Origin: Candidatus Schekmanbacteria bacterium RIFCSPLOWO2_02_FULL_38_14
GTDB lineage: Bacteria > Schekmanbacteria > GWA2-38-11
DNA: 64,000 nt
Reading direction: 5' to 3'
Assembly (NCBI GenBank): GCA_001790855.1
Contig: MGDH01000016.1
Location: forward strand, 2,044 to 66,043
Positions 33,319 to 49,423 of this stretch are shown piece after piece. The notes under the pieces are model-generated. The model saw only the letters and a list, made by a program, of their open reading frames with translations. It did not search any database and was not told the DNA's origin. Position 1 is the first letter of the stretch, and each line of letters opens with the position of its first letter. The position numbers and the translations under genes are program-made.

Positions 33319-33341
33319 AAAAACTCCTTATTAGTTGTGTA

Positions 33342-34889
33342 TCAGTTGTCAAATTCATAAAATACATCGACATTGTTGTAAATAATTTTCCCATATAAAC
33401 TTTTAAGACGCCTTCCTTGGATTGCGTATATCGCATCGATCGGGTATTTGAAAAATCGCTTCTTGACTCTCCATTTGGCGATTTTTTTGAGAATAAAATT
33501 ATCGAAAAAAATACTACAAAACAAATCGAGCGATTTGCCCCATAATGACGTATCTGTTGGTGCACTATTTAGAGTGCCGGAATAAGGGAAATAATAAAAA
33601 TAAAAATATTTTACCTGATTTCTATATGATTTTTTAAACCACGGGGCTTTAAATTTTCTCAAAGTATGATCAGACCACGCCTCAAGACTTTCGGGTTCTT
33701 TAAATCCATGTTTAATAGCCTCCCCATAAAGACTGGTGGAGGGATAAGGGGTATAATAAAAAAGTCGAAAATCGAAATCAGGATTAATCTCTCTGCACTT
33801 CAATATCATGTCCATGGTTTCGAAGACTTCAGATTCAGGTACTCCGTGGACACCAACCATTGAAGAGAAGGATGCCCTGATGCCAATTTTCTTCATCTTA
33901 TTTACAAATTCATACGTTTGTTCAACCGTTGCTTTTTTATTCAATCTTTCAAGAGTTAAATTTGATCCAGATTCAGCCCCGATGTATAGTTGTTTACAAC
34001 CTGATTTTTTTACCAACTTTAAGGTTTCATCATCATATTTTGCAAGAATAAGATTAACACTAACACCTGCGTCCCATGAAATTTTGTAGGGTCTTTTATT
34101 CAATTCCTCGCAAAATTGTACAACTCTTTTCCTTGAAACAAAGAAATTATCATCATCTATTGTTATTCCGGTAATCTTGTATTTCGATACCAAAAACTCG
34201 ATTTCTTCCAATATATTATCCATGTTTCTAAAGAAAATGTGCCTTTTGTAAACACTGGCAACTTCACAAAAAGCACAATTGTTAGGACAACCTAAACTCG
34301 TAATTATGCCTATCGATCTATCAGATCTATCAGCAAAAGGCTTTTTATAAATATATTTCTCAACATCAACAGCCTCAAAAGGCATTTTAACCTCTTCAAT
34401 TAAAGACAATAGTTCTCTGCAAGGATTGTGGTATATCTTTCCTTGCTTCTTGAAAGAGATTCCTTTTATGTTTGACAAATCTCTATCACAGGAAAGTGCA
34501 ACAGCCAGTTCTTTTAAAGTGACTTCTCCTTGTCCTCTGACTACAATATCTACAAACGGATGTCGAAGTGTTTGTTCGGGCATGCTGGTTGGATGCCACC
34601 CTCCCCAAACAATTGGAACTTCTGGATGGAATTCTTTTATTTTTTTTGAAATTTCAAGTCCTCCTTTTATTTGAACACCTGTAAATGAACTTATACCAAA
34701 GCATAATATGTTTTTTTTAAACTTCTTGATCGTTGCGTCTAAGTCAACTTCTGTTCTTTGATCAATTATTTTTACTTTGATATCAGCATTTTTAAGATAG
34801 CTATATAAAAACATTAAAGAATAAGGCAATCTCCCGCTCATGGTTGTTCCAGGCCATGGTCTGGGATAAAACAAAACTATTTCATTCAT
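33342..34889 (-). CDS. Cobalamin-binding-domain (class B) radical SAM enzyme
   Basis: 515 aa. N-terminal B12-type Rossmann region (LFYPRPW...PYSLMFLYSYLK, GISSFTG), rSAM CPNNCAFC. Confidence 0.82.
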   Translation of the reverse strand: MNEIVLFYPRPWPGTTMSGRLPYSLMFLYSYLKNADIKVKIIDQRTEVDLDATIKKFKKNILCFGISSFTGVQIKGGLEISKKIKEFHPEVPIVWGGWHPTSMPEQTLRHPFVDIVVRGQGEVTLKELAVALSCDRDLSNIKGISFKKQGKIYHNPCRELLSLIEEVKMPFEAVDVEKYIYKKPFADRSDRSIGIITSLGCPNNCAFCEVASVYKRHIFFRNMDNILEEIEFLVSKYKITGITIDDDNFFVSRKRVVQFCEELNKRPYKISWDAGVSVNLILAKYDDETLKLVKKSGCKQLYIGAESGSNLTLERLNKKATVEQTYEFVNKMKKIGIRASFSSMVGVHGVPESEVFETMDMILKCREINPDFDFRLFYYTPYPSTSLYGEAIKHGFKEPESLEAWSDHTLRKFKAPWFKKSYRNQVKYFYFYYFPYSGTLNSAPTDTSLWGKSLDLFCSIFFDNFILKKIAKWRVKKRFFKYPIDAIYAIQGRRLKSLYGKIIYNNVDVFYEFDN

Positions 34890-34997
34890 TATGTTATTGA
34901 CTCTTGCATAAATAATGCAATGACGGGTATCTAAAGGGATATCCGCTATATGTCCAAAAGGTTCTGCAAATTTGGTCGTGTACCACCTTGCCCCGCA

Positions 34998-35888
34998 TCA
35001 CCCAGATAACTCTATATGTTTTACAACTACATTTCTAATCCCCGCAGGATCCAGACCCACATGACGCCGAACCTCGTTCAATGTACCATACCAGCAACAG
35101 AAGTCGTCCGGCAGCAGGCCATGATAGGCCGTCTGAAGGTTGGGCACTTCGTTAACAGCCTCGTAGAGACCAAGCGCATCGTGCACTACAAGGATCTTCG
35201 TCTTAGAAAATTCAGTGAGGATCTCCTTGTCGATTGGTTTTATGGTGTGAAAATAAATAAGGTTCACATTCAAATCCTTGCATGCTTCAAGTACATTGAC
35301 CAAAATCGGACCCGCGGTCATCACCGTCACGTTTGAACAGGCTCTCTTTAGAACCACACCCTTGCCAAATTCCACGGAATAATCATTAATTAAGTGGGGA
35401 TGATCCGAAAGCCTTATGTAGGATGGCTTTCCTCTCCGGTATTGGCTCCGCAACAAAATATTAAGTTCTCTTGTCGAGCCGGGTTGAATAACTTCCATAC
35501 CAGGCAGGAGCCGCAAAATCGCCAAATCCGTATATGAGTGGTGGGATGCCCCGTCCCAAGCATAATCGAACGTCGCCCCACATGAAACAATATTGACACC
35601 GAAGCGGTTATAACACACATCCAGCTTTATCTGCTCATAGCTCCTCTCTGTTATAAATGGCGCTATTGTATGAACAAAAGGGAAAAAACCTTGCGAGCTC
35701 AAACCAGCAGAAACACTTATAAGCGTGTTCTCACAAATACCCATATTGTAAAATCTATCAGGATATCTGTCCTTAAAATCCTTGAAGAGATAAACACTCA
35801 CATCTCCTAGTATCAAAACCACTCTATCATCTTGCCTGGCCAAATCTAAAACTGTTTCTTTAAATTGTTTCCTCACACAGCTCTCCAA
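34998..35888 (-). CDS. Transketolase, C-terminal (pyrimidine-binding) subunit, copy 1
   Basis: 296 aa. NMGICENTLISVSAGLS and FVHTIAPFITERSYEQIKLD blocks. TTG start in the track (a GTG at 35876 is also possible). Markedly GC-rich relative to its neighbours. Confidence 0.83.
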   Translation of the reverse strand: MESCVRKQFKETVLDLARQDDRVVLILGDVSVYLFKDFKDRYPDRFYNMGICENTLISVSAGLSSQGFFPFVHTIAPFITERSYEQIKLDVCYNRFGVNIVSCGATFDYAWDGASHHSYTDLAILRLLPGMEVIQPGSTRELNILLRSQYRRGKPSYIRLSDHPHLINDYSVEFGKGVVLKRACSNVTVMTAGPILVNVLEACKDLNVNLIYFHTIKPIDKEILTEFSKTKILVVHDALGLYEAVNEVPNLQTAYHGLLPDDFCCWYGTLNEVRRHVGLDPAGIRNVVVKHIELSG

Positions 35889-36642
35889 TTAAATTTTCAA
35901 GCTCTTGATCATTTGGCGACCTTCTATGCCATTCATATTGATTCTCGATTAGCGTTCTGCAACCAAAACCCTTTTTAGTATCAGCAACAATAACTCTGAC
36001 CGTGTCGCTTTTCTTTGTTATTTCTTTTTTTAATTTGTCTATATCGTGACCGTTAACTTCAACAACTTCACAACCAAAACTTTTAAATCTTTCGGCAGGA
36101 TTGGTTATTTGCAGTCCCCTACTGTGAGACATGTTATTGTCATATATAATAGTAAGGTTATCGAGTTTCAGATGAGAGGCAACCATAACCGCCTCCCATA
36201 CAGATCCTTCATTAGATTCACCATCGCCGATAAGTACAAACACCTTCCTATTTTCACCTTTTATTCTAATTGCAAGCGCTATCCCAACAGCAATACCTAT
36301 TCCATGTCCCAAAGAACCTGTTGATGCCTCTATGCCTGGCACTTTAAGCCTATCTGCATGACATCCTAAATCCGACATGAAAGATCCGAAAGTCTCCACC
36401 CTCTTTTTATCAAAGTAACCGAATTCTGCCAAAACACAATAATGAGCAAGTGCCGCGTGCCCCTTGCTTAAAATAAATATATCTCTTTCTTTCCACGACG
36501 GATTTTTAGGATCGTGTTTTATCGTACTATAAATCGTATATAGTATCTCTATAATAGAGAAACAGGTAGGGATGTGCCCATGACCACTTAATTGAGCAAT
36601 TCTCAAAATATCTTTTCTGATTTTTTTACAAATAGGCTTCAT
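35860..36642 (-). CDS. Transketolase, N-terminal (ThDP-binding) subunit, copy 1
   Basis: 260 aa. GHIPTCFS, LSKGHAALA, ASTGSLGHG, GDGESNEGSVWEA (ThDP GDG...N motif). Confidence 0.88.
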   Translation of the reverse strand: MKPICKKIRKDILRIAQLSGHGHIPTCFSIIEILYTIYSTIKHDPKNPSWKERDIFILSKGHAALAHYCVLAEFGYFDKKRVETFGSFMSDLGCHADRLKVPGIEASTGSLGHGIGIAVGIALAIRIKGENRKVFVLIGDGESNEGSVWEAVMVASHLKLDNLTIIYDNNMSHSRGLQITNPAERFKSFGCEVVEVNGHDIDKLKKEITKKSDTVRVIVADTKKGFGCRTLIENQYEWHRRSPNDQELENLIGELCEETI

Positions 36643-37406
36643 TCTATTTTCAAGTACGATACTCTTGAAGTCATTGGAAGTCTTTGAATTCTCACGTTAT
36701 TTAATCCTAACACCTCTTTAAGTGCTATTGTCTCTCCAGGAAAGATATCATCACATAATTCATCAAACACAAGAATGCTCCCTTTGCACAAATAGGGTTT
36801 AATGGCTTCCAATGCAACTTTGGTAGGTGCATAGATATCAAAGTCCAGAACGGCCAAAGAAATGATAGTTTCCGGGTGTTTCTTAAAATATTCTGGTAGA
36901 GTTTCTCTAATATCTCCCTTTACAATTTCATATCTCTTTAAATGAGACATCGGGTTCAACTGTTCTTGCATGTATAAAACTTTACCGAGGTAATCTTCAT
37001 AACCATGCGCTACCGAAAAAGAACCGTCCTTACATTTGCAAAGTTCACCATCCTTTTCAGACATTCCTCTAAAACCCTCAAATGTATCAAAACCCACAAT
37101 TTTCCTATGCCTGTTAAATGGCTCGAACACCCCCCTCAAAGCAGACATGATTGATAATGTCTGACCCCATCTGACTCCAAATTCTACAACTATACCATGA
37201 GTATGGATAATCTTTTTATAAATTTCATAAAAGAATAGTATTCTTGACAGATTCTTAGATGTCAGAAACAATCCCAGGTTAGGCAACAGTTCATCATCAG
37301 GAAGCGGAGCAGACTTAAGTTGTTCTACAAACTGTTTTAAAACTGCCTTCTCATCCGAGTTGGATAAAATTATTGCATCGTGTTTTTCTGTTTTCATTTG
37401 TTCCAC
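36639..37406 (-). CDS. TylF/MycF-like sugar O-methyltransferase
   Basis: 255 aa. VEFGVRWGQT, FDTFEGF, LAVLDFDIYAPT and ILVFDE blocks are typical of macrocin-O-methyltransferase-like enzymes. Confidence 0.72.
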   Translation of the reverse strand: MEQMKTEKHDAIILSNSDEKAVLKQFVEQLKSAPLPDDELLPNLGLFLTSKNLSRILFFYEIYKKIIHTHGIVVEFGVRWGQTLSIMSALRGVFEPFNRHRKIVGFDTFEGFRGMSEKDGELCKCKDGSFSVAHGYEDYLGKVLYMQEQLNPMSHLKRYEIVKGDIRETLPEYFKKHPETIISLAVLDFDIYAPTKVALEAIKPYLCKGSILVFDELCDDIFPGETIALKEVLGLNNVRIQRLPMTSRVSYLKIE

Positions 37407-38413
37407 CTTCCTTTATTTTCAAACCACCATTCGGTGGTTTTCCTTATTCCCTCCTCGACAGTATTTTGTGCCTGCCAACCAAGAGTGTTTTTTATCTTTG
37501 TACAATCAAGCGCCCTGAAATTCATAGTTGTGGGTTTGTCTTGAATGTATTTTACTTCTTTTGGTGTATGTCCTGCATATTTCAAAGCCAGATTAACAAC
37601 CTCACCAACCGAGACTTTTACTCCAGAGCCAACATTGAAAACATCGAATTTAACATTACCATTGTCTAACATCATTACAATCGCTCTTGCAAAATCATCT
37701 GAATAAATAACATCCCTGATGACATCAGGACTTCCCCATACTTCGAAAGGGTCCATCTTATCAATGGCTTTACGAATAATTGCTGGAATAAAATTAGAGG
37801 TCTTCGGGTCAAATTTAGCATAAGGACCAAAAATATTTGCTACCCGGGCCACAACTATTTCCATACCATTTTGCTCATATAAAAATTTGCATAGTTTTTC
37901 GATAAACCTAACTACCCATCCAAATCCCAGATAAGCCTGATTGGGATCCTTGTTCAAATCAAGTTCATCCTCTTTTATACTCCCTTCGAACTCCTGATAT
38001 AAAGTTGCAGAACCAATATAAATTACCCGTTTAATATTTTCCAGCTGAAATGCTTCTATCATCTGTGTATTCATCAATAAATTTTCTTTAATATGCCTCC
38101 ACGGGAATGATCTTATTATGCCTGCCCCACCTGTATATGCGGCTGCCATAACTGCACAATCACATCCACTAGCCATCCTCTTGCAATCCTCTAGAGAAGT
38201 TAGATCACCATCCACATAATCCACACGCTCATTTTTAATAAAAGGTCTCGTATTCTTATAATATGAGGCACGGACTTTGGCTCCAGGATAATTATTAAGG
38301 ATATGCACCAAAATGCTGGTGCCCGCCATCCCAGTCGCACCTGCCAAAAAAATTAATTTCTCATTTAACGTAGATCTGTTTTTTTGCAATTTCACAAGAT
38401 TGCTATTTTTCAA
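37394..38413 (-). CDS. Extended SDR epimerase/reductase, non-canonical active-site motif
   Basis: 339 aa. FLAGATGMAGTSI, IGSATLY, ARVANIFGPYAKFD. Has FGWVVR in place of YGWxK. Confidence 0.75.
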   Translation of the reverse strand: MKNSNLVKLQKNRSTLNEKLIFLAGATGMAGTSILVHILNNYPGAKVRASYYKNTRPFIKNERVDYVDGDLTSLEDCKRMASGCDCAVMAAAYTGGAGIIRSFPWRHIKENLLMNTQMIEAFQLENIKRVIYIGSATLYQEFEGSIKEDELDLNKDPNQAYLGFGWVVRFIEKLCKFLYEQNGMEIVVARVANIFGPYAKFDPKTSNFIPAIIRKAIDKMDPFEVWGSPDVIRDVIYSDDFARAIVMMLDNGNVKFDVFNVGSGVKVSVGEVVNLALKYAGHTPKEVKYIQDKPTTMNFRALDCTKIKNTLGWQAQNTVEEGIRKTTEWWFENKGRWNK

Positions 38414-39395
38414 TCGTTAGTGCTTTCCATGGACAACGAGACAACTCCTCTTTCCAATACACCAACATATCTTGGAGGGTTTTTTCAAAAGGTATTTCCG
38501 GCTTCCATCCTGTTTCATTTTTGAATTTGTCTATACAAGGTATCTGCAATGTCACATCAGAAGGCCTCAACAGTTTGGAGTTAACCTTAACCTCAATCCT
38601 TACCTTAGAAAGTGACAATAAAATATCCAAAGCCTCCCCAATCATCATTGTCCTATCACCGCCTATATTATAGACCTCACCGGGCTTACACCTGTTTATT
38701 AAAATCCAATATGCCCTCACCGCATCTCTCACGTCACAGAAAGTTCTCACGGATTTTAAGTTCCCAACATATACAACCGGTTTGCTAAGTCCTAATTCAG
38801 CAGCTGCAACCTGCTTGGCAAATGACGACATGGCAAAAACATCACCTCTCCTTGGCCCTGTATGAGTAAACATTCTAGTGCGTATATTTTTAATTCCGTA
38901 AGATACAAAGTACTGAAAGGCTATCATATCTTCTCCGACTTTGCTTACTGCATATGGCGAAGCCGGCTTAAACGGGCATGTTTCTTTAATTGGAACATCT
39001 GCCTCATTTACCTGGCCATAGACTTCTGAAGACGAACATATATGAACAACTGGATTAATTTCCGTTATCCTAACGGCCTCGAGCAGATTTGTTGTCCCTA
39101 TAACGTTCACCCATAGAGTGTGAACAGGAGAGTTAAAACTGGTCAAAACATAACTCTGCGCCGCTAAATGAAAAATAACCTCAGGTTGAACAACCTTAAG
39201 ATGTCGAATCAGAGCGCCCAAATCACAAAGATCAGCCTCAAGTGGAGTTACTTTATTGTATATTTTTTCAAGATTATCCTTTGGGCTTCTCCACCTGCAT
39301 AATCCATAGACTTCATGATTTTCATTTAGATTAAGTATATATTCTGCAAGATGACTCCCCACAAAACCTGTTATTCCTGTAATCAATATTTTCAT
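38403..39395 (-). CDS. GDP-mannose 4,6-dehydratase / GDP-4-keto-6-deoxymannose reductase family SDR
   Basis: 330 aa. ILITGITGFVGSHL, SSSEVYG, SPYAVSKVGED (canonical YxxxK), RMFTHTGPRRG. Confidence 0.8.
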   Translation of the reverse strand: MKILITGITGFVGSHLAEYILNLNENHEVYGLCRWRSPKDNLEKIYNKVTPLEADLCDLGALIRHLKVVQPEVIFHLAAQSYVLTSFNSPVHTLWVNVIGTTNLLEAVRITEINPVVHICSSSEVYGQVNEADVPIKETCPFKPASPYAVSKVGEDMIAFQYFVSYGIKNIRTRMFTHTGPRRGDVFAMSSFAKQVAAAELGLSKPVVYVGNLKSVRTFCDVRDAVRAYWILINRCKPGEVYNIGGDRTMMIGEALDILLSLSKVRIEVKVNSKLLRPSDVTLQIPCIDKFKNETGWKPEIPFEKTLQDMLVYWKEELSRCPWKALTIEK

Positions 39396-39443
39396 ATAAT
39401 AAATCTCATTCTCTATGCTGTTAATGATTTAACTTTGTATAGA

Positions 39444-40574
39444 TTATAACACGCTTTCTCGTTGATTAACCTTAATATTATGAAAATCATCTACAAAACG
39501 TTTATACTCCTTAAGTAGTAATTGATTGGCAGAATTAGAATTCACTTCCGATAAAATCGGGGAAGCACCTAACCACCAATACGAATAGATTAATGATGAT
39601 GAATACGAACCCCATAAAGTGGGCATATTCAACATTACCATCAACAATTCAACAGGGAGAAACCGATTAATTTCATATTTCATAGTAAATACTTTGCAAT
39701 CATATTTTTTAAAATATCCCAAATAATTATTCAAATCCAAAGGATGGTTTTTTATTAAAACACAAGAATCATTTAACGAAACATCCTTAATCTGGTGCTC
39801 AAGATAATTATTATATTCATTTGGTGGCACCTCTGCTGTAGGCAGATATACATACCTGTTTTTGAAACGATTCATCTGAGCATTTATATCAACAATCTCC
39901 CCATATTCTTTTGGAAACATTTTTTGATATTCTTTCTCCACATGCTTAAATATTTTTGGTATTAAATCACTCGCATTAACAGATACCAGAGACACATTTT
40001 TCTCTAATTGCTTTTTTTTTATTAAATGACACCGTCCACCATCCAAGAAAACAAACCGTGAGGGGATAGTGCCGCGGCTCATAAATCGATACCCTACAAA
40101 ATAATCAAAACATCGTCTAAAAAGGGTTATTGGACTGTACCTATTTCTCATAGAATAAAACAAATTATATTCCTGTATGCTATGCTCAATAATATTAAGC
40201 TTAGCAGTTCTATCTTTGATCAAAGACCACAGCATAGATGGCATGGGTGCATAAATCTGATCAATTCCACCAAATTCAGTAAGGTTTTTATTAAGATGTT
40301 TTTTAAATGACTTATAATATTTTACCGCTTTGTAATATCTAATGATCCTCCTTTTCAACAAACCCACATGTTCCATCCGATCAATGTAAATAACCTTTCC
40401 CCATGGAAAATAACTCTCAATCATGCTGTTCAATTTGAAATAATTTTCTTTAAAAACATTAGTAGCCCTCTCAACGCAAAGAATATTAATATCTGTTGCA
40501 TGCAGTTTTTCTGCAACCACACTAGCTGCAATGGTACTCATTAATCCATTTGTAAAAAAAACATTGGTAACCAT
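39444..40574 (-). CDS. Hypothetical glycosyltransferase, sialyltransferase-like (D/E-D/E-G-like and HP motifs)
   Basis: 376 aa from the ATG at 40574, which is preceded by AGGAGGG; the track start 40592 is probably upstream of the true start. FVFLDGG and LIKNHPLD blocks resemble the two motifs shared by GT38/GT52/GT80 enzymes. Weak, motif-level only. Confidence 0.4.
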   Translation of the reverse strand: MVTNVFFTNGLMSTIAASVVAEKLHATDINILCVERATNVFKENYFKLNSMIESYFPWGKVIYIDRMEHVGLLKRRIIRYYKAVKYYKSFKKHLNKNLTEFGGIDQIYAPMPSMLWSLIKDRTAKLNIIEHSIQEYNLFYSMRNRYSPITLFRRCFDYFVGYRFMSRGTIPSRFVFLDGGRCHLIKKKQLEKNVSLVSVNASDLIPKIFKHVEKEYQKMFPKEYGEIVDINAQMNRFKNRYVYLPTAEVPPNEYNNYLEHQIKDVSLNDSCVLIKNHPLDLNNYLGYFKKYDCKVFTMKYEINRFLPVELLMVMLNMPTLWGSYSSSLIYSYWWLGASPILSEVNSNSANQLLLKEYKRFVDDFHNIKVNQRESVL

Positions 40575-40650
40575 CTTAAACACCCTCCTCATCTGTTGTT
40601 TTTTTTATGTCTCCAAGAATAGTTAACAGATGATCCCCAGCTTTATACTC

Positions 40651-42228
40651 TTACGAAGATAACTGGCCAACATTAAACTTTCGCCAATAAATAGTCGCTT
40701 TTGGATAACTTGCATTATCGAATGATAATCTTTTTACTACCTCAACAATATTTTCCGAACAACCTGAATTTCCATCGCATACAATGAATACCCAAGTCGG
40801 TTTTGAAAAAAATGTCTCCTTGTTTAGAACTTGATCATATCGAACACTATAGCTTGAAATTCCTTGTTGTTGAAATAACAAATTATACTTAGCGTCTCCG
40901 GCAATCACTACGACAGACGCTTCTGTATCAGCAGATCTAATAGATTGTATTCCATTTAAAACAACTGACTTAACACGGCAATCTAATCTATTTTCATACT
41001 CCTTATACGCAGAATAACTCCACGCTCCTGCCATACCAACAACCACAACCAAAATAGTAAAAATTCGAGCACCGCGTTGGCTCATGATAGAAAATAAAAA
41101 TTCTACCACAAACATTATAATAATGGGGCTAATAAAATAGTAATATCGACACTCACTAAAGAATTTAAAGCTCGTGCCATTCCAGAAACAAAGCGTAAGA
41201 AAACCAAGGAATAGTATTAACGACATAAACGATAAAATAAACCATGATGTCAAAACGTTGAAACGGCCTATGCGATATAATTTATACAACACACAGCCCA
41301 TTGTGAACATAACACCTGCTGCCAAAATACGGACTACCATTACTAATTGTCCACCTATATTCAACTTGTTTACAATAAAAATCAAGAGTCCTGGAGGCAT
41401 AAAAACGTACAATATCGCCTCAAATATTTCCAGTAAATTAAAATTCAAGTGTAAGTGTTTATTGATAACAGCGCCTATTGTTCCAACACTACCTGCGTAC
41501 AAAACGTTTGTATAAAAAATAATAACGGCAGTTACAATAGGCAACAAAACAACTAATGAACTATTAATTACCACTTCTTTGTAATTTTTTCGATGCATAA
41601 ATACTACCCATACAAAGCATATTATTAACATAACCAAGCCTAAATATTTCACAAGAATCGCAATAGAAACCAGTAGGCTTGTAGCAAGAATAAACACACT
41701 TTGCTTTTTAATGTTCTTCTCTCGAGCAGGGAGCTGTTTGACAGACAACATTAACCAGGTTAGTAAAGGAAATATCGCCCAAAGAATTAAGTCAGTGCAA
41801 GAAGATGCAAATCGCAATGACAGTGGGCACAATAGAGAAACGTACAAAATTTTAGCCATTGTTCTTTCGATATAAAAGTCAGACAACTTAAACCACAGCC
41901 ATATACCAGAGATGAGAACAACGCTTTTAAAAAGCTTTGCAGAAAACCCTATGCTAAAACCAATTTTCAACAATAAAGAGATGAAAAAAGAATATCCTAT
42001 TGGCCACCCTTTTAAATAACTATAGTTGGCAATGGACAAATCCTTTTGGGGAATCAATGTGGCTGTATATCCACGGCCATCAGCCAACCTCATCGCAGCT
42101 TGAAGTTGAAAAGCTTCATCTGTATTAGAGAAATAGGGGTTTACGAAAAGCACATATAAAAAGGGAATAACCAATAGAAAAATTAGAATGAAAACTAAGT
42201 TTTTATTGTAGCTCGTGTACATTCGCAA
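40651..42228 (-). CDS. GT-C fold (ArnT/PMT-like) polytopic membrane glycosyltransferase
   Basis: 525 aa, at least 11 hydrophobic segments. First-loop acidic motif SNTDEAFQL..A..LA.G.GY and a soluble C-terminal ~110 aa. Confidence 0.6.
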   Translation of the reverse strand: MRMYTSYNKNLVFILIFLLVIPFLYVLFVNPYFSNTDEAFQLQAAMRLADGRGYTATLIPQKDLSIANYSYLKGWPIGYSFFISLLLKIGFSIGFSAKLFKSVVLISGIWLWFKLSDFYIERTMAKILYVSLLCPLSLRFASSCTDLILWAIFPLLTWLMLSVKQLPAREKNIKKQSVFILATSLLVSIAILVKYLGLVMLIICFVWVVFMHRKNYKEVVINSSLVVLLPIVTAVIIFYTNVLYAGSVGTIGAVINKHLHLNFNLLEIFEAILYVFMPPGLLIFIVNKLNIGGQLVMVVRILAAGVMFTMGCVLYKLYRIGRFNVLTSWFILSFMSLILFLGFLTLCFWNGTSFKFFSECRYYYFISPIIIMFVVEFLFSIMSQRGARIFTILVVVVGMAGAWSYSAYKEYENRLDCRVKSVVLNGIQSIRSADTEASVVVIAGDAKYNLLFQQQGISSYSVRYDQVLNKETFFSKPTWVFIVCDGNSGCSENIVEVVKRLSFDNASYPKATIYWRKFNVGQLSS

Positions 42229-42244
42229 TAAAAAAATCCAATAG

Positions 42245-42967
42245 CTAGTAAACTCGGACGGGTTTTTTATTATACAAAGAACGCTGTGTTAAAAATATTT
42301 CTATAATTAACATAAAAAAAGTATTAATAACTTCTACTAAGTTTTTTATCTTTATTGCGCTACTATTCTGTTTTTTAGCCTGGGCATACCCTGGAATTTC
42401 GAAAAATGAGCATCCTTGCCTCAAAAGTTTTACTGTTATTTCAGCAATAACACTAAATCTCTGTGCTCGAATTGGTAAGCCTCTCAATTTCCAAGTTGGA
42501 TATATGCATGGTGAATTGATATATTGAATGTAAATATCAAATAAAACTGTATAAATTAAGTTATAAAAATTTGACAAAACTATTCTCCTGCGACATCTCA
42601 CTTTTTTATTCAAATAAAAACCAAAAACCAATTCCGCCTTATTTTTATATCTAAACAGCTCTCTTAATAAATTTATACTCATGTCATTACTTCCGCCAAT
42701 AATAGTAAATTTTTCATACTTTGCTATTTTTATTGCTTTTTTTAAGCTTTCTCCAATCCCTATATTTGTTTTATTAAAAATGCCGCGAATAAAATTATAT
42801 TTTCTGGTCAATTCAGAAATTAGAAAACCTGTCTTATCAGTACTTCCATCGTCCACTATTATTATATCTAACTGGGTCTCTGTCTCATTTGCAACTTGAA
42901 TTATATCAGAAACAGTATTTTCTAAATTATTTTCTTCATTCAGACAGGGTATCATAATTGACAACAT
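42245..42967 (-). CDS. GT2 polyprenyl-phosphate glycosyltransferase (ArnC/GtrB/DPM1-like)
   Basis: 240 aa. IMIPCLNEE.N, IIIVDDGSTDKT. Directly upstream of the GT-C protein. Confidence 0.78.
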   Translation of the reverse strand: MLSIMIPCLNEENNLENTVSDIIQVANETETQLDIIIVDDGSTDKTGFLISELTRKYNFIRGIFNKTNIGIGESLKKAIKIAKYEKFTIIGGSNDMSINLLRELFRYKNKAELVFGFYLNKKVRCRRRIVLSNFYNLIYTVLFDIYIQYINSPCIYPTWKLRGLPIRAQRFSVIAEITVKLLRQGCSFFEIPGYAQAKKQNSSAIKIKNLVEVINTFFMLIIEIFLTQRSLYNKKPVRVY

Positions 42968-42991
42968 CTTTATTGATTTAATTTGCAGAAA

Positions 42992-44380
42992 TCAGGTTTG
43001 TCGAAAACCTCTAAACGACGCATCGCATTCAAAATACAATTTTTTCGCATTTTCGATCGCATTACATTTTTGATACAGAAAGTAGTTTTCTATTAACACT
43101 TTATTTGCCTCGTAGAGAAGCATATAAAATTCATCATCACTTAGGTTTGTAAAATTAACTGACAATAAATCTGAATTAATATGTTTATTCTCATAAAAAT
43201 CTTCACAATCTTTCAGCAAACCTTTCTCTATAGCATAATAATATAGTGGGGAGCCTGGATATGGTGTAACAGGTCTTATTGTTCTCATTTGAGCATGGTC
43301 ATCATACTTAAGCAGGAAATCAACACCAAGTTTTAACGATTCTGCGGTTTCTCCAATATTGCCGAATATAATATTAAACCCTGGGCTTATACCAGCAGCT
43401 AAAGTATTTTCTATGCTACTGATGATTTGCTTAACCATAAGCCCCTTTTTCATTGTATGAAGGGCTTTTTCATCCAGCGACTCAATACCATAATTAATGA
43501 AAACACATCCTGCTTCTTTCATTAATCTAAGAACATCAGGTCTTGCATAATTTAATCTGCCGTTACAAAACCATTTAAATTTAAGTTTTGACTTAATAAA
43601 ACTTTCACATAATTCAACTGTTCTCTGAACGGAGCTCATTAAAAGCTCGTCCTGGAAATCAATATAAGAAATATGATAGTCTTTCTTCAAAATTTGTATT
43701 TCTTCTATAATGCTATCTGTGGACCGGACTCTATGGCCTTTATCCATCCTGTAACAAAAATTACATTTAAAAGTACACCCTCTCCCTGATAATAGAAGCA
43801 TACAACGTTCGCTGTTTTTAATATTGGCTTCTCTTAACAAAGCATAATGATCAATAGGAAATAAATCCCATGCGGGAAAAGGAATTTCATCAATATTTGG
43901 TATAAGTGCACGTCTTGGTGTCTGAATACATTTTCCATTTTTCAAAAATGCAATGCCATGAACAGAACACAATTCTTTTTTTTCTTTTAAAGTTTCTAAT
44001 AGTTCTATTATTGTAATTTCGCCTTCTCCGATTACTACTACATCAGCTCGTGTTTTTTTTAAGAAATACTCAGGTTCTGGCGATGGACCATGCCCTCCTA
44101 TTATAAAAAAGGGCCTATTTTTTGCTTTATTAATAGCTTCTGATATTTTTAATAACTTTCTGTATTGATAATAGCCTCCTATAACACCTACGCCGATTAC
44201 ATCAAAATACTCCCTGTTCAATAAATTAAGTAAATGTGATTCTGGCCAATGATAAACATCTTGGTTATAAATTTTAACTTCATGCCCTGCATTTCTGCAT
44301 ACGGACGCAATGTATGCTAATCCAAGGGGAAAAACTGAAATATAAGAATCATTATCATATGCTACTAACAGAATTCGCAT
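42992..44380 (-). CDS. Cobalamin-binding-domain (class B) radical SAM enzyme
   Basis: 462 aa. MRILLVAYDNDSY..FPLGLAYIASV, IIGGHGPS, rSAM CTFKCNFC. Confidence 0.85.
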   Translation of the reverse strand: MRILLVAYDNDSYISVFPLGLAYIASVCRNAGHEVKIYNQDVYHWPESHLLNLLNREYFDVIGVGVIGGYYQYRKLLKISEAINKAKNRPFFIIGGHGPSPEPEYFLKKTRADVVVIGEGEITIIELLETLKEKKELCSVHGIAFLKNGKCIQTPRRALIPNIDEIPFPAWDLFPIDHYALLREANIKNSERCMLLLSGRGCTFKCNFCYRMDKGHRVRSTDSIIEEIQILKKDYHISYIDFQDELLMSSVQRTVELCESFIKSKLKFKWFCNGRLNYARPDVLRLMKEAGCVFINYGIESLDEKALHTMKKGLMVKQIISSIENTLAAGISPGFNIIFGNIGETAESLKLGVDFLLKYDDHAQMRTIRPVTPYPGSPLYYYAIEKGLLKDCEDFYENKHINSDLLSVNFTNLSDDEFYMLLYEANKVLIENYFLYQKCNAIENAKKLYFECDASFRGFRQT

Positions 44381-44474
44381 TTGAATACCTTCAACCCATA
44401 ATTTATTTTCTTATCCTGATTACCAGCATGTCCTTCCGAAAACTCCATTTTGCTCATTTATCTATATTTACCTA

Positions 44475-44502
44475 AATATGTTATTGCCTGCGGTCATGTC
44501 AA
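44475..44502 (-). promoter_or_regulatory. Candidate internal promoter (TTGACA-16 nt-CATATT) in the 163-nt spacer upstream of rSAM 42992..44380
   Basis: Minus-strand TTGACA at 44502-44497 and CATATT at 44480-44475. This is one of the few spacers over 100 nt in the locus. Confidence 0.3.
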
Positions 44503-44543
44503 TAATCGGGCAGTAGTAAGCGAAATTATATCCTCACACAAAA

Positions 44544-45773
44544 CTAATTTTTACTATTCATCTTAACCCTAGCTGATGGATGCCCATATTTATTACGAGC
44601 TTTTTCTAAAACTGTACTGCACCACTTATTCCGATCAAGTTTGGAATAAAGTGCCTTAAACTCATTTAACAAGAGTTCTGGTGTTACCAAAATCTGGGTA
44701 CTAAACATTTTTTGTCTATCTGTTGCAAACGAAAAATTTTCCCCAGATTTCAATTCAAGTCTATGTAAACACCATTCTGGGAATTTGAATATCAAATAAG
44801 GAAGGTCACTAAACTGCGCAATAGTATTAACCCCAGATGATGTACCCATATACATTAAAGATGTGCGAATCAAAGCAAGGTCTTCTATTATAGATGTCCC
44901 AAAATCTTTTGCGATAATTACATTCGACCTTTTTCTCAGGCCATCAAAAGTTTCCTCCCGTAATCCAACAAATACAAAAACAACTTCCGGAAAATCTATT
45001 TTACACTGATCTATGAATGACAACCAAACCACAGGATTAGTGTTCCGTTCAGAAGCATGCGATGTTTGTTTTAAAGATAATGTTACAGGTACTGTATTCT
45101 CTGGCAAATAATTCAGGTAGAACCAATGTGCCCAAAATCCATCCCTATCACCAATTCTAAGATATGGTATATATCCATGCGAATTATAAAAATCTTGTAC
45201 CTCATTAAAGTTGGGGAATCCATAATCAGCATAATTATATGTTTCGCCTAAGTGATGAGCCAACGGTGGGAACATGTCATAGCGTTCAACATTACTTTTC
45301 AAGAAATGATAAAATTCTTTACGAGAATTAAATTGGAAAATTGATCCAAGATATGGACATGTACTAAACAATGGAAGGAATTCAAGCATATAGTCTTGCG
45401 CATTATCAGATGTAATATTATTATCTTCGGCTTTTTTACGGTTGCCAATTGGGTTATCACTATCATATATAACACAAATATCAACTTCTTCTGCATTATA
45501 TTTAATTTTCAAAATGCTTAATCTTTCAATGAAAAGTAAGGGATCTCCAACTGACCATGGAAGGGCTTTGAAGTCCCAAACTCCCAAAATACGTTTCTTT
45601 TGAAAGTTTGGTGCGAAAATTAGTTTCATCAAATTATAATAAAACCTGACTTTTATTGGCCATAGACCCAGCCTCAACCAAAAACTATATAATTTATCAG
45701 TTATTATCTTACATGTAGTAAGAACACCGTGCTTACGAATTTTGCGATATATATCTATACCCTTTTGAAACAT
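44544..45773 (-). CDS. Uncharacterised GT-B-like protein, paralogue A
   Basis: 409 aa. Shares blocks with 53545..54600: RILGVW, IPYL, (A/K)(R/K)DFG(S/T), DLALI, MG(T/M)(S/T)SG, FSD.PY.I(F/Y)K, SFAT. The DLALI...G.SG block recalls the donor-binding C-domain of GT9-type enzymes. Confidence 0.5.
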   Translation of the reverse strand: MFQKGIDIYRKIRKHGVLTTCKIITDKLYSFWLRLGLWPIKVRFYYNLMKLIFAPNFQKKRILGVWDFKALPWSVGDPLLFIERLSILKIKYNAEEVDICVIYDSDNPIGNRKKAEDNNITSDNAQDYMLEFLPLFSTCPYLGSIFQFNSRKEFYHFLKSNVERYDMFPPLAHHLGETYNYADYGFPNFNEVQDFYNSHGYIPYLRIGDRDGFWAHWFYLNYLPENTVPVTLSLKQTSHASERNTNPVVWLSFIDQCKIDFPEVVFVFVGLREETFDGLRKRSNVIIAKDFGTSIIEDLALIRTSLMYMGTSSGVNTIAQFSDLPYLIFKFPEWCLHRLELKSGENFSFATDRQKMFSTQILVTPELLLNEFKALYSKLDRNKWCSTVLEKARNKYGHPSARVKMNSKN

Positions 45774-45830
45774 TTTATTTCCTATTTATACATTATATTT
45801 CTAATAATCAATTTAGTACTGACTAAACTT

Positions 45831-47273
45831 TCAATAGTACCGACTTACCTTACCATCTAAGCCAACAATAGTTTTACCATCACCATGCCAAATACCTTTG
45901 AGACGATACCATTGCCATGCTACCAAGGGGATTACAATTAATAGTGATATCATGTATCCGACTGCCATTCCCATGGCAGAAAAATAACGTCCAAGGAAAA
46001 CATTGCTGCATGTGATTAAAATTGCAGCCAGAACACTAATGAGCAATAATGGTTCTTGCTTATGGGCTCTCAGATACCCTGCCATAGGAACTGATATGGC
46101 TTGAAATATTTGTGCAAAGGCAAATATTCCCATAGGCAATGGTGGCAAAAGACGAGCCGCAAAAGGATGCTGTAAGACATTGAGTATGTATACTATAAGC
46201 CAGCCGCTGAATGATATGAAACCTGAAACCACTATCGTTATTTTCATGAGTCGCCAAAATAGTCTATCTAGTTCCTCATATTCTCTCCGTGCAATCAGCA
46301 TACCAAATTGTGGAATTTTAGGAGCAATCCATGCAGTAGGAATTGAAGGTATGAGTCCGACTACACTCCATGTCATACCCATCTGTCCTGCAACTACAGC
46401 ACCATGATATTTAAAAAGTATCGGTATAAAAAAGTAATGGACAAAATAACCACATAAACAGCTTAGGCCTATCTTCCATTGCATTGGCCAAATATCATTA
46501 GACCAATGCAATTTTTCTTTAACTTTAAATGAGAATATTAAAGTTTTAGAAAATACCTTATATTTTCTTAAAATAAGCGTAATAATGCATATTATACTTG
46601 CTATATTAGAAAAAGTTAAAACCCATAAATTTGTGTGTAATAATATTGTTAACCAAAGAGTTATTTTGACAAATAATGCTTGGTAAAACGAGTAGGTATA
46701 TAAATTAGATACTTGATTGCATCCCTCTAATATAGAAGTAATTGGAAGCAATAAAACCGCAATACTAGTGATAAAACAAAGTGAAAACCAGGGCATTTCC
46801 CAGTCAATCGAAGGATCTGGGGATCTGGAAAAAAACAGATATCCCCCTACACCTAAACCAATAAGTACGAAGATGGCGGCAATTCCATACCATTTTAAAA
46901 CAAAACGTGTCAAACTAGCCAGTCTCGAAAGAGCTACATTATCGCCAATTATATTGCCATCATTATCTAAACTTAAACTAGACCATTCATGTGCGGCAAA
47001 TTGGAGAATTACAATACTTAGTCCCAATTCAGCAAAAGTTTGTAATGCAACCAAACTTTGAAAAGTATAATAATAACCCTGCAATTTTGCAGTAAAAACG
47101 CTAATCATTAAAATTCCAGTAATTGGCCCAGTAATTAGATTGAATACTCGAGTTAAAAGTCCAAAAAATACAGGTCTATCTATAGAAGCCCTTTGCATAA
47201 AAAGGTGCATTGTGTCTTTTATAATCATCATTTTACAAGGTGCCTCCAGTTGATTTTTCTCGGGTCTGTCCAT
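45831..47273 (-). CDS. Wzx-like oligosaccharide flippase (MOP superfamily)
   Basis: 480 aa, about 12 hydrophobic segments, located inside the glycan locus. Confidence 0.65.
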   Translation of the reverse strand: MDRPEKNQLEAPCKMMIIKDTMHLFMQRASIDRPVFFGLLTRVFNLITGPITGILMISVFTAKLQGYYYTFQSLVALQTFAELGLSIVILQFAAHEWSSLSLDNDGNIIGDNVALSRLASLTRFVLKWYGIAAIFVLIGLGVGGYLFFSRSPDPSIDWEMPWFSLCFITSIAVLLLPITSILEGCNQVSNLYTYSFYQALFVKITLWLTILLHTNLWVLTFSNIASIICIITLILRKYKVFSKTLIFSFKVKEKLHWSNDIWPMQWKIGLSCLCGYFVHYFFIPILFKYHGAVVAGQMGMTWSVVGLIPSIPTAWIAPKIPQFGMLIARREYEELDRLFWRLMKITIVVSGFISFSGWLIVYILNVLQHPFAARLLPPLPMGIFAFAQIFQAISVPMAGYLRAHKQEPLLLISVLAAILITCSNVFLGRYFSAMGMAVGYMISLLIVIPLVAWQWYRLKGIWHGDGKTIVGLDGKVSRYY

Positions 47274-47323
47274 TAATCCAGAGCAATGTCATAATGTTTC
47301 TCTCGCAAGCTTATTTTTCTGTT

Positions 47324-49423
47324 CTATAAGCTTTTCTGTTTCCAAAGAATATACTTCAAGTACAACTCCTTTGTAAAAGTAGCACCAAATAGCCGTCTCA
47401 ACACTCGTTTTGATATCTGTTTTAATGTAGGTTCTATTTTTAGAAACAATGCCCCAAATCTTAATAGCTTTATAACTAAGCCCCAAATTATACGATCAAA
47501 AGCTCCTCTATGACCTTTCCCTGTAGTAAATTTACTTACGTAACGTGTTATTTTTAAACTAAATCTTTTATTATCAGGCACTAAGTGTAAAATTTTAGGA
47601 GCGTTCGTTCCATTTTTTGAATAAAACATTTTTATCATTAATTCTGCATCTCCAGTTGGATCATCAGCTATTAGAATCTTATCCGGTGCTATACTTAGGA
47701 GCTTTTCTATTTGTAATATTGGCATATGAGCAAATAGCGGACTCGAATCTTTCTTTCTTTCAAGTTCAAGAAATCCTTTTATCCTTTCATAGTTTAATCC
47801 AAAATGGTCATAACGTAATATATTCATCGCTTGCAATTGTGTGCCGGCAATAACCAATTTTTCTGCACTCCTTAATTCTTCACATAACATATCATAGTGT
47901 CTAAAAAAATCTTCTAGTTTATAATAATTTATATGTAAAGGAATGTAACACTTTGGGCAATATGTTAACTGCCCTAATAAATTATAATCTGATAACACTT
48001 TAACAGTACTGCCACACTCTGAACATATACCGTTTACACTTATTGTTCCCAATAACCAATTCCTTTTATATTTAACATCTAAGACCTTAAATCTATTAAA
48101 TAAAAATGTATAAAAACACCTAAGCTCGCTGAAAACAACACTCCAAAAACGATCATTGGAAATCGCGCTAATATTTAAATATCTTTCTCGATTTCTCCAT
48201 AATAAATCATAAGGACCGGGGGTCAGATGTATGTTTTTGTAATAGTCTTTTTCATCGTTGATTAAACCTCTTTTTAAAGCACTTTTATAAATTTGCGTTC
48301 CTGGATATGCATCTACTAAACTTACATCAGCATTCATTTCCTCATTAATTACCATATCAATTGTTTCTTTTAAATCTTCCTTAGTTTCTCCTTCATTCCC
48401 CACCATAAAAGTACCAAGACACGGTATTTTTGCTTCTTTTGCTGCTCTATAGAACTTTATAATTTCTTCCTTAGTCGTTTGTTTTTTCATTATTTTTAAT
48501 ATTTTATTTGAACTACTTTCTATACCAGCTCCTGTTAAAACACATCCAGCCTCTTTCATTGCAACAAAAGTATCAACATCGATATTCTTTACATCTACAC
48601 GCATCCCACACATCCATGGTTTTTTCGTTTTCAATCTCTTGTATTCTTCACAAAACCGCAAAATGTCTTCCTTGGTTTGGTAAAACATTTCATTAACGAA
48701 ATTAAGTATGTCAAAATTATACTTAGAAAGTAAAAATTCTATTTCTTCCATAATATGTTCAAGGGGACGTTTTCTAAATGCCCCGATGGTCGGGGAGCAA
48801 AAGGTACATACTCCAACACATCCCCTGCCAGTCAGTACCGGTAAAACTACCTGATTATGCATATAGGACGCTTCAGCATATTTGTAATAATTTATATTAA
48901 TGTGATGCCAGGCGGGCAAAATATTAATATCTTGCAAATCCAATCTTTTAGGATGATTTTTAATTACTTCACTGCTAGACCTGTCTTTAAAAAGTAGTCC
49001 TGGCACTTCTTTAAAATCATCTGAGCCATTACTTAACTCATCAATAAGGCAAGGGAGCGAGGTTTCAGCTTCACCAATAATCCCGAAATCAATTCCCATC
49101 ATTTCACTATCAAAAAGAAAACGAGGATTAACGTCTTTGGTGATATTACCACCTATTATAATCGGCAAACCAGGTTTGATCGAACGAATTGTATGAATGG
49201 TTTGTGATATAAAATTAAAGTTGGAAATTAGCCCTCCAGTTGCAAATGCTAAATAATCATTTTTTTTAAGCAGTTTACTATAATCTGGATTGGTAAGTGT
49301 TGTATCAATAAAATCAAATGGTATATTATTCCGTTCCAAACATGAAAGGACATAAGCCATTCCCAGTGGGCTATGCTTATAAGGAGGTTTTACTATTAAT
49401 AATTTCCTACTATCTTTTTGCAT
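47324..49423 (-). CDS. Cobalamin-binding-domain (class B) radical SAM enzyme with Cys4 ribbon and ~230-aa C-terminal extension
   Basis: 699 aa. KLLIVKPPYKHSPLGMAYVLS, IIGGN, rSAM CVGVCTFC. Then CSECG-x21-CPKC, followed by an unassigned C-terminal region. Confidence 0.8.
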   Translation of the reverse strand: MQKDSRKLLIVKPPYKHSPLGMAYVLSCLERNNIPFDFIDTTLTNPDYSKLLKKNDYLAFATGGLISNFNFISQTIHTIRSIKPGLPIIIGGNITKDVNPRFLFDSEMMGIDFGIIGEAETSLPCLIDELSNGSDDFKEVPGLLFKDRSSSEVIKNHPKRLDLQDINILPAWHHININYYKYAEASYMHNQVVLPVLTGRGCVGVCTFCSPTIGAFRKRPLEHIMEEIEFLLSKYNFDILNFVNEMFYQTKEDILRFCEEYKRLKTKKPWMCGMRVDVKNIDVDTFVAMKEAGCVLTGAGIESSSNKILKIMKKQTTKEEIIKFYRAAKEAKIPCLGTFMVGNEGETKEDLKETIDMVINEEMNADVSLVDAYPGTQIYKSALKRGLINDEKDYYKNIHLTPGPYDLLWRNRERYLNISAISNDRFWSVVFSELRCFYTFLFNRFKVLDVKYKRNWLLGTISVNGICSECGSTVKVLSDYNLLGQLTYCPKCYIPLHINYYKLEDFFRHYDMLCEELRSAEKLVIAGTQLQAMNILRYDHFGLNYERIKGFLELERKKDSSPLFAHMPILQIEKLLSIAPDKILIADDPTGDAELMIKMFYSKNGTNAPKILHLVPDNKRFSLKITRYVSKFTTGKGHRGAFDRIIWGLVIKLLRFGALFLKIEPTLKQISKRVLRRLFGATFTKELYLKYILWKQKSL

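Follow-up and report, generated by a model that had tools for sequence, protein, structure and literature searches.

Why would a bacterial surface-glycan locus encode three radical S-adenosylmethionine (SAM) enzymes with N-terminal B12-binding domains, and what might these enzymes modify? The question was raised by a 64,000-nt stretch of DNA from Candidatus Schekmanbacteria bacterium RIFCSPLOWO2_02_FULL_38_14 (assembly GCA_001790855.1, contig MGDH01000016.1, positions 2,044 to 66,043 of the forward strand), here called the window. Exact sequence matches (such as OGL41494, 'Candidatus Schekmanbacteria bacterium GWA2_38_9') tie the window to Schekmanbacteria metagenome-assembled genomes recovered from groundwater. 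A preliminary description of its sequence had pointed to three such genes, termed R1, R2 and R3 below. Our analysis makes it reasonably probable that their products are class-B-architecture radical SAM tailoring enzymes of a Wzx-type surface-glycan pathway, most likely C-methylating. Taken by itself, a tailoring role on sugars or glycans is highly probable; cobalamin-dependent C-methylation, judged enzyme by enzyme, comes close to an even chance and stays slightly below it. The locus and the three genes are:

~21.7 kb to window end, minus strand: surface-glycan locus, ~45 kb, co-directional, with short or negative spacers
33342..34889, minus strand: R1, 515 aa; B12-binding domain at residues 25-128, radical SAM domain at residues 195-362, CPNNCAFC at 34266-34289
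42992..44380, minus strand: R2, 462 aa; B12-binding and radical SAM domains, CTFKCNFC at 43754-43777
47324..49423, minus strand: R3, 699 aa; B12-binding and radical SAM domains, CVGVCTFC at 48797-48820

Both domains were recognized by Pfam in all three open reading frames (ORFs), and the peptides cited in the preliminary description were recovered exactly. Scores for PF02310 (B12-binding; 54.4, 64.2 and 44.3 bits for R1, R2 and R3, gathering cutoff 32.1) and PF04055 (Radical_SAM; 80.3, 65.8 and 60.4 bits, gathering cutoff 29.5) lie above the cutoffs throughout, so that the domain assignments are no chance matches. Each protein contains one CxxxCxxC motif (residues 201-208 in R1, 202-209 in R2 and R3), which together with PF04055 places it in the radical SAM superfamily, while the fusion of an N-terminal PF02310 domain to the radical SAM core places it in class B. 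Cobalamin binding by R1-R3 is predicted from this architecture. With pairwise identities of 26-29%, the three are old paralogues and not recent duplicates.

The fold was assessed with AlphaFold2 models of R2 (predicted local distance difference test score, pLDDT, 90.5; predicted template modeling score, pTM, 0.88) and R3 (pLDDT 93.1, pTM 0.90), built from family alignments and compared to the PDB with Foldseek. Both models confirmed the radical SAM fold and matched solved class B enzymes, as the preliminary description had anticipated for the B12 domain; the best matches were MgmA, TsrM, AprD4, CysS, OxsB and TokK (E values of 1e-15 to 1e-22). Direct PDB sequence searches with R1-R3 returned weak matches only (E values of 1e-9 to 1e-26). 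TokK, CysS, TsrM and MgmA (PDB 7kdx, 9n1b, 6wte and 9ccb) share with the window proteins a Rossmann B12 domain followed by a CxxxCxxC-bearing partial TIM barrel, with sequence alignment over both domains. They differ in that identity reaches just 16-22%, in that their substrates (carbapenem, cystobactamid, tryptophan and a glutamine of MCR, respectively) include no glycans, and in lacking an additional C-terminal module of R3, described below.

Evidence on the pathways served by these enzymes came from their relatives in other genomes, and the clearest pattern was obtained for R2. Its homologues are all 462 aa long, with 73-85% identity to R2 in the 120 protein clusters listed and 63-81% in 80 species-representative genomes; by length (~462 aa) and identity (at least ~63%), the window protein is a member of this family. 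The family spans more than 15 bacterial phyla plus Archaea. Bacterial hosts belong to Bacillota, Thermodesulfobacteriota, Nitrospirota, Planctomycetota (Kuenenia, Brocadiaceae, Phycisphaerae), Omnitrophota, Elusimicrobiota, Pseudomonadota, Bacteroidota, Gemmatimonadota, Chloroflexota, Deferribacterota, Synergistota, Actinomycetota, Margulisbacteria, Wallbacteria and the Candidate Phyla Radiation (CPR; Wolfebacteria, Minisyncoccia, Parcubacteria), and archaeal hosts to Woesearchaeota (81% identity), Methanomicrobiaceae and Promethearchaeota.

To describe the R2 neighborhoods, ORFs were called in 80 loci and clustered, and gene orders were read; the counts given here refer to the 66 loci whose flanking sequence extends over 8 kb or more. 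NeuB, NeuC or a CMP-synthetase is encoded within 10 kb of R2 in 56 of the 66. Maf-type flagellin glycosyltransferases occur in 17, flagellin genes in nine and acetimidoyl genes (PseA/HisH/HisF) in 19. The recurring cassette comprises a CMP-sugar synthetase, a NeuB-like synthase, a NeuC-like hydrolyzing 2-epimerase, a PtmE-like CBS-nucleotidyltransferase, a DegT aminotransferase, a PglD-like acetyltransferase and a 4,6-dehydratase, which overall constitute a legionaminic-acid-type route. PtmE and the CMP-synthetase are the commonest immediate neighbors among those assigned to a family. In Desulfoscipio geothermicus DSM 3669, flagellin genes are followed by Maf, R2 and the complete legionaminic acid (Leg) pathway. 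For the same pairs of loci, the median pairwise identity of R2 is 66%, compared with 36-46% for the adjacent NeuB, NeuC, CMP-synthetase, PtmE and DegT proteins, and no hidden conserved partner emerged among the 'singleton' neighbors of the family loci. Together, these features characterize R2 as an accessory to a core sugar pathway, self-sufficient and under strong constraint. Two neighbor families from this comparison (F19 and F37), considered as kin of two window proteins of no family (409 and 351 aa, see below), turned out to be unrelated to them.

Several further occurrences of R2 relatives stood out. Orthologues with 64-81% identity are present in small-genome CPR bacteria and in DPANN and Asgard archaea (L005, L037, L038, L040, L081, L082), which implies repeated horizontal transfer of the cassette; such hosts would presumably have to scavenge cobalamin. 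Contigs of Candidatus Kuenenia stuttgartiensis (L003/L004) encode four B12-type radical SAM proteins, one of them 83% identical to R2, along with a further radical SAM gene, a YfhO-like protein, PF27859 (LIC12162), GTs (glycosyltransferases), DegT and methyltransferases. The S-layer O-glycan of Kuenenia is reported to carry up to five methyl groups, an unusually heavy methylation whose presence and positions were deduced from mass alone (PMC5088730), and a possible link between this glycan and the R2 locus is suggestive. A search of a plasmid collection brought up relatives of R2 with at most 30% identity and no close orthologue. One, on a Rhizobium plasmid, lies in a non-glycan, SPASM-type context. 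Plasmid 1 of the pig pathogen Lawsonia intracellularis (NC_008012.1, 27 kb) is largely a glycan locus with GT2 genes, GalE, SIS, two radical SAM genes, five class I methyltransferases, a HAD hydrolase and a GHMP kinase; one of the radical SAM proteins matches R2 at 29.6% identity across the B12 and radical SAM regions. This plasmid is a cultured example of the general association of radical SAM and glycan genes.

R1 lies within a cassette of its own, module A, delimited using Pfam, NCBIfam and synteny:

26350..39395, minus strand: module A, R1-associated cassette, which also holds four short-chain dehydrogenase/reductase (SDR) epimerase/reductases and a 308-aa protein of no family
38403-39395, minus strand: GMD-like 4,6-dehydratase
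36639-37406, minus strand: TylF-like 255-aa protein
35860-36642 and 34998-35888, minus strand: first split transketolase
30577-31755, minus strand: MiaB-like radical SAM gene (UPF0004 and Radical_SAM)
29011-29529, minus strand: RmlC-like cupin
27071-28069, minus strand: HddA-like GHMP kinase
26350-27063, minus strand: HddC-like nucleotidyltransferase

Orthologues of R1 are rarer than those of R2 and share 44-65% identity. Two unrelated metagenome contigs (L088 and L090) carry the cassette of ~13 genes in nearly the same order and with 48-72% identity to the window: GMD-like, SDR, TylF-like, transketolase N and C, R1, SDR, MiaB-like, SDR, cupin, ~308-aa protein and kinase. The nucleotidyltransferase is present in L090, and the L088 contig ends within it. 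Identities range from 69-72% for the TylF-like protein and 65-70% for the split transketolase to 61% for R1 itself, 61-70% for the SDR that follows the MiaB-like gene, 53-70% for the GHMP kinase and 48-54% for the MiaB-like protein. In NCBIfam, the closest families to the enzymes of module A are HddA, HddC, GMD, GDP-fucose synthase (Fcl) and RmlC, all under equivalog cutoffs. These affinities point to a GDP-linked 6-deoxy-heptose or 6-deoxy-hexose route that would include two radical SAM steps and a C2 transfer dependent on thiamine. The second of these radical SAM genes, which is the fourth in the locus, encodes a MiaB/RimO-like protein with UPF0004 and the N-terminal cysteines C11, C47 and C77, and no TRAM-domain match was found in it. 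Its conservation within the R1 cassette of both contigs suggests that a sugar may undergo radical methylthiolation or some other reaction with sulfur. A nearby 170-aa ORF (31820-32332, minus strand) without Pfam match is 44.5% identical to the C-terminal third of a 340-aa FkbM-type Methyltransf_21 gene product that holds the same position in L090; judged by this alignment, it is probably a truncated remnant.

A wider R1-like clade in metagenomes (29-40% identity) is found mostly among GTs, DegT aminotransferases and methyltransferases, and its loci often hold two to ~7 B12-type radical SAM genes per ~21 kb (L135, L122, L156). Such loci with multiple B12-type enzymes are common in anaerobe metagenomes, and what the preliminary description proposed as a candidate undescribed system is not singular to the window. 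In L135, L122, L156 and L161, four to ~7 such genes in 15-21 kb are interleaved with GT2 and GT4 genes, in some arrays also with methyltransferases, at a radical SAM density far above that of the window.

R3 belongs to a second cassette, module B, which leads into R2 and was delimited by Pfam and synteny:

44544..62160, minus strand: module B, R3-associated cassette, also containing SDRs and NUDIX
61177-62160 and 60119-61177, minus strand: E1 alpha/beta
57828-about 59030, minus strand: TylC3-like C-methyltransferase
56232-57005 and 55303-56235, minus strand: second split transketolase
54612-55292 and 51081-51737, minus strand: methyltransferases
53545-54600, minus strand: 351-aa protein of no family
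49493-50539, minus strand: zinc-dependent alcohol dehydrogenase (Zn-ADH)
45831-47273, minus strand: Wzx-like protein
44544-45773, minus strand: 409-aa protein of no family

Members of the R3 family are 680-700 aa long and share 35-69% identity. Family alignments revealed, C-terminal to the radical SAM core, an invariant CxxC...CxxC Zn-ribbon (C467/C470/C489/C492, encoded at 47948-48025), followed by an alpha/beta domain to about residue 620 and a poorly conserved helical tail. The Zn-ribbon and alpha/beta domain probably hold the substrate. A relationship of this domain to the TylC3/TcaB9 type (PF08484) was not apparent in a PDB profile search, and an hhalign comparison of the R3 profile with the TylC3-like protein of the window gave E = 0.11 at a probability of 0.5; a distant R3-family member (P0404) has a true PF08484 match, located in an additional domain.

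The neighbors of R3 are retained in an Elusimicrobiota contig (L091; 53-83% identity) and in L174/L175 (59-88%), with identities across these contigs of 83-88% for the 218-aa methyltransferase, 60-71% for the Zn-ADH, 53-70% for the Wzx protein and 59-64% for the 409-aa protein. Upstream of this module lie E1 alpha/beta genes in L091 and an SDR (64-74%) with a split transketolase in L174. Beyond the module, L091 carries genes for a CTP-transferase, a SPASM-type radical SAM enzyme and NeuB, and then a B12-type radical SAM gene whose product shares 37% identity with R2. An orthologue of R2 with 78% identity is located ~9 kb downstream of R3 in L174/L175, followed by another split transketolase, an SDR, a further radical SAM gene of the B12 type and a GHMP kinase; within ~27 kb, these loci hold radical SAM genes of the B12 type (five) and of the SPASM type (two). 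Co-occurrence with split transketolases in other genomes, proposed earlier as a check, was therefore seen for R1 in L088 and L090 and for R3 together with R2 in L174/L175, where Wzx and GTs are present as well. Because R1, R2 and R3 each keep sugar-pathway neighbors in unrelated genomes, we regard them as dedicated to glycan or sugar-nucleotide pathways. The 409-aa and 351-aa proteins of module B are paralogous and have no Pfam, NCBIfam or PDB match; their kin stand beside Wzx and R3, with 64% and 42% identity in L091 and 59% in L174, and they may represent glycosyltransferases of an undescribed family.

Several results weigh against C-methylating glycan enzymes. None of the three proteins reaches a curated NCBIfam cutoff. 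The R2 model superposes best, and over its full length, on AprD4 (template modeling (TM) score 0.73-0.77, root-mean-square deviation 3.6-4.1 A). The usual nonulosonic acid context of R2 is missing here: no NeuA, NeuB or NeuC homologue was found in the window, and no NeuB, NeuC or CMP-synthetase in ~9 kb further upstream. Finally, at least six conventional SAM methyltransferase-like genes are already present in the locus. With regard to the missing Neu genes, they are either located elsewhere in the genome or the substrate of R2 differs in this organism; the Kuenenia R2 locus likewise belongs to the minority without NeuA, NeuB or NeuC.

The best partial NCBIfam matches were BchE, HpnJ, the ladderane-type lipid radical SAM enzyme, ApyD, PhpK, HpnR, MgmA-type, BzaD, AprD4 and TIGR04295, with scores three- to tenfold under the curated cutoffs. 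R1 gave the best values for BchE (TIGR02026; 165 bits, cutoff 481) and HpnJ (TIGR03471; 141 bits, cutoff 578), and R2 for the ladderane-type family (TIGR04072; 129 bits, cutoff 360). ApyD (NF050148) scored 104-122 bits against a cutoff of 750, rSAM_ocin_1 (TIGR03975) 60-92 against 282, PhpK (TIGR04479) 95-115 against 600 and Sden_1168 (NF038361) 82-102 against 575; HpnR (TIGR04367), with a cutoff of 650 bits, was also missed. No gene for a phosphoenolpyruvate mutase was found among the Pfam-annotated genes of the locus. TIGR04295 ('B12_rSAM_oligo'; 53-77 bits, cutoff 400) is a hypothetical-equivalog, uncharacterized B12-binding radical SAM family that resembles R1-R3 without including them and that we take to be linked to a predicted oligosaccharide cassette.

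Such matches, to BchE, HpnJ, the ladderane-lipid enzyme and ApyD, together with automated annotation (JGI) of many homologues as 'anaerobic Mg-protoporphyrin IX monomethyl ester cyclase', would be expected if R1-R3 belonged to an unrelated lipid, tetrapyrrole or ribosomally synthesized and post-translationally modified peptide (RiPP) pathway and merely adjoined glycan genes. We consider this very improbable. The four matches lie 3- to 7-fold under their cutoffs, and synteny with sugar-pathway genes is kept in dozens of unrelated genomes; the conserved neighborhoods are those of sugar pathways, not the lipid, tetrapyrrole or peptide ones that the preliminary description had named as contrary evidence. 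A motif scan detected no SPASM-type cysteine cluster in R1-R3, and a scan of small ORFs no plausible precursor peptide in the locus, in agreement with the earlier argument against a RiPP role. Likewise, no tetrapyrrole, hopanoid or peptide-maturation gene is found among the annotated genes of the locus. Thresholds, motifs and synteny thus effectively exclude tetrapyrrole, RiPP and dedicated lipid roles, and the automated labels 'Mg-protoporphyrin cyclase' and 'YgiQ' are misleading and are corrected by this analysis.

The resemblance to AprD4, a radical SAM 1,2-diol dehydratase that takes part in making apramycin (PDB 6fd2), deserves more weight. AprD4 has ~455 aa compared with the 462 of R2, is the best full-length structural match of R2 and the top PDB sequence match for R2 and for the R3 profile, and acts, according to the PDB title, on an aminosugar; it differs in belonging to an antibiotic pathway, in contrast to the surface-glycan setting of R2. 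It has no bound cobalamin and catalyzes diol dehydration. OxsB, also among the matches, is a class B enzyme that acts on a nucleoside sugar and does not methylate it. One or more of R1-R3, R2 above all, might therefore be cobalamin-independent, with a vestigial B12-like domain, and catalyze dehydration/deoxygenation, epimerization or rearrangement of a sugar, and the many adjoining SDR and Zn-ADH reductases could complete a dehydratase reaction. We rate this alternative as fairly unlikely. Scores for the AprD4 family (NF033070; 57.2, 77.6 and 69.6 bits for R1, R2 and R3) fall far short of the cutoff of 500, and the PF02310 values are well over threshold. Moreover, sequence alignment to AprD4 is confined to the radical SAM core, whereas the N-terminal domains align to the true cobalamin binders OxsB, TokK, MgmA, CysS and TsrM, which is mild evidence for a functional B12 domain. 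Of the earlier proposal, radical C-methylation or rearrangement of sugars, the dedication to sugar pathways was thus upheld by synteny; methylation is one option only, given that R2 is nearest to AprD4.

The rest of the locus is consistent with surface-glycan assembly. From ~21.7 kb onward, nearly all genes are tightly packed on the minus strand, and the array extends ~9 kb further upstream on longer contigs, with SIS/GmhA-like, HldE-like, aminotransferase and methyltransferase genes. Pfam identified GT2, GT1 and WecG-family GTs, a Wzx-like flippase, a Wzy_C-like membrane protein and many nucleoside diphosphate (NDP)-sugar enzymes, in addition to two split transketolases, an E1 alpha/beta pair, a TylC3-type sugar C-methyltransferase and the other methyltransferase-like genes counted above. 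No initiating phosphoglycosyl transferase was identified among the locus genes. Outside modules A and B, the following genes were assigned:

42245-42967, minus strand: GT2, immediately downstream of R2 (Pfam)
40651-42228, minus strand: 525-aa polytopic membrane protein, downstream of R2, no family match
39444-40592, minus strand: 382-aa protein, three genes downstream of R2, weak PF07388 polysialyltransferase match
25290-26345, minus strand: 351-aa putative GT, at the distal end of the glycan locus (21668..26345; Pfam)
23616-25004, minus strand: Wzy_C-like membrane protein (Wzy_C match at E = 1.2e-4, below threshold)
22448-23638, minus strand: GT1, distal end, clear Pfam match
21668-22438, minus strand: WecG/TagA-family GT, distal end, clear Pfam match

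The interleaving of radical SAM genes with glycosyltransferases and the flippase, reported earlier, was verified for the GT2 gene and for the Wzx-like gene of module B, the latter at 65 bits compared with an NF041503 cutoff of 300. Counting both split transketolases and the E1 alpha/beta pair, the locus encodes three systems that depend on thiamine diphosphate. The TylC3-type sugar C-methyltransferase indicates that C-branched sugars are made here, and in combination with the thiamine-diphosphate systems it points to two-carbon-branched or chain-extended sugars. Its ORF, called at 57828-59234 (minus strand), overlaps the upstream gene (59014-60012, minus strand) by 221 nt; the true start is probably near 59030, as the gene is called as 400 aa on a longer contig (L085, 13131-14333). 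The match of the 382-aa protein to alpha-2,8-polysialyltransferases (PF07388) is weak (E = 3.8e-4, below threshold); if it is real, the glycan may contain nonulosonic acid despite the lack of nearby NeuB or NeuA. PDB sequence searches with the 382-aa and 409-aa proteins gave no match.

This membrane-rich setting bears on the question of whether the substrate is a nucleotide sugar at all. Genes for Wzx, GTs and polytopic membrane proteins lie among those of R1-R3, and the R3 tail of ~60 poorly conserved residues forms basic, amphipathic helices for which membrane association is possible. The target of the enzymes could instead be the glycan at the membrane, in its undecaprenyl-linked or its finished form, or else a substituent other than sugar, such as an N-acyl group, an acetimidoyl group or a lipid anchor; the acetimidoyl genes in 19 of 66 R2 loci and the lipid enzymes HpnJ and ladderane-type radical SAM among the partial NCBIfam matches fit this alternative. 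We judge it unlikely, however. R2 occurs in minimal cassettes with only the core legionaminic-acid enzymes and Maf (L001/L007), its commonest assigned neighbors PtmE and CMP-synthetase are soluble nucleotide-sugar enzymes, and R1 is found amid NDP-sugar enzymes.

The favored model, in which R1-R3 modify sugars as tailoring enzymes, would proceed as follows. In the cytoplasm, reduction at the [4Fe-4S] cluster would cleave SAM and generate a 5'-deoxyadenosyl radical, which would remove a hydrogen at an unactivated carbon, either in the nucleotide-activated sugar itself or in its N-acyl substituent. Donation of a methyl group by methylcobalamin, resulting in C-methylation, would be the most likely outcome, and the modification would precede sugar transfer and flipping. 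R1 would receive its substrate from the GDP-(6-deoxy)heptose/hexose-type cassette with the split transketolase and the MiaB-like radical SAM protein, and R3 would work in the second cassette with methyltransferase, Zn-ADH and Wzx genes. For the R2 family, the usual substrate context would be legionaminic-acid-type nonulosonic-acid biosynthesis. A more specific and rather speculative version, which we put forward tentatively, is that the R2 family, as cobalamin-dependent enzymes, installs a hitherto undetected modification, most simply a C-methyl group, on legionaminic-type nonulosonic acids or their precursors, with R1 and R3 as parallel enzymes for branched sugars derived from GDP-heptose or GDP-hexose. 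Throughout, cobalamin use, methylation and the exact substrates are what we infer from architecture, fold and conserved synteny.

How do these enzymes compare with known systems? The superfamily and radical chemistry on sugars are already familiar from GenK, GenD1, Fom3, AprD4 and OxsB. GenK and GenD1 (gentamicin) and Fom3 (fosfomycin) are class B C-methyltransferases acting on unactivated carbons of sugar-like substrates. Compared by description only, they share with R1-R3 the enzyme class and the idea of methylation at an unactivated carbon; they are secondary-metabolite enzymes of Actinobacteria, whereas the R1-R3 families reside in Wzx-type glycan and flagellin/nonulosonic-acid glycosylation loci of anaerobes. 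To our knowledge, class B radical SAM studies have been almost wholly devoted to antibiotic, cofactor, lipid and RiPP pathways.

On the glycan side, Leg and pseudaminic acid (Pse) in Campylobacter and Legionella are tailored by an amidotransferase (PtmG/PseA) and a methyltransferase (PtmH/ORF 8, with ORF 8 being putative) (PMC3766260). Like R2, these are add-on genes in Leg/Pse clusters that diversify a nonulosonic acid; they are not called radical SAM in the literature searched, in contrast to R2. Campylobacter PtmH/Cj1325, considered as a relative of R2, was rejected on the basis of its description, which is that of a methyltransferase only. Some L. pneumophila lipopolysaccharide (LPS) loci hold a radical SAM gene, ORF 13-c, with no assigned role (PMC3766260), which is the one related mention in the literature searched. 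No description of class B radical SAM enzymes in surface-glycan, nonulosonic-acid or flagellin-glycosylation pathways was found in this literature, which omits most subscription journals, and the preliminary description had likewise known of no characterized surface-polysaccharide pathway with such enzymes. The R1-R3 subfamilies and their fixed place in surface-glycan and flagellin-glycosylation cassettes therefore appear undescribed, above all the association of R2 with nonulosonate biosynthesis.

Three uncharacterized subfamilies thus emerge as fixed parts of conserved sugar-nucleotide cassettes, a pattern that is widespread and not specific to the window. R2, more conserved than the core nonulosonic-acid enzymes and present in bacteria and archaea, offers glycobiologists a testable lead toward a new chemistry of sialic-acid-like sugars on flagella, S-layers and LPS, with D. 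geothermicus DSM 3669 and Wukongibacter baidiensis as cultured hosts. The data also suggest revisiting methylated glycans that were assigned as O-methylated by mass alone, such as the S-layer glycan of Kuenenia. If R2 does modify nonulosonic acids, new C-alkylated sialic-acid-like sugars would be present on anaerobe flagellins, S-layers and LPS, with carriers ranging over Clostridia, anammox bacteria, CPR bacteria, methanogens and DPANN/Asgard archaea, and, with R1 and R3 included, radical SAM chemistry would be a general means of diversifying surface glycans in anoxic habitats that has so far been overlooked.

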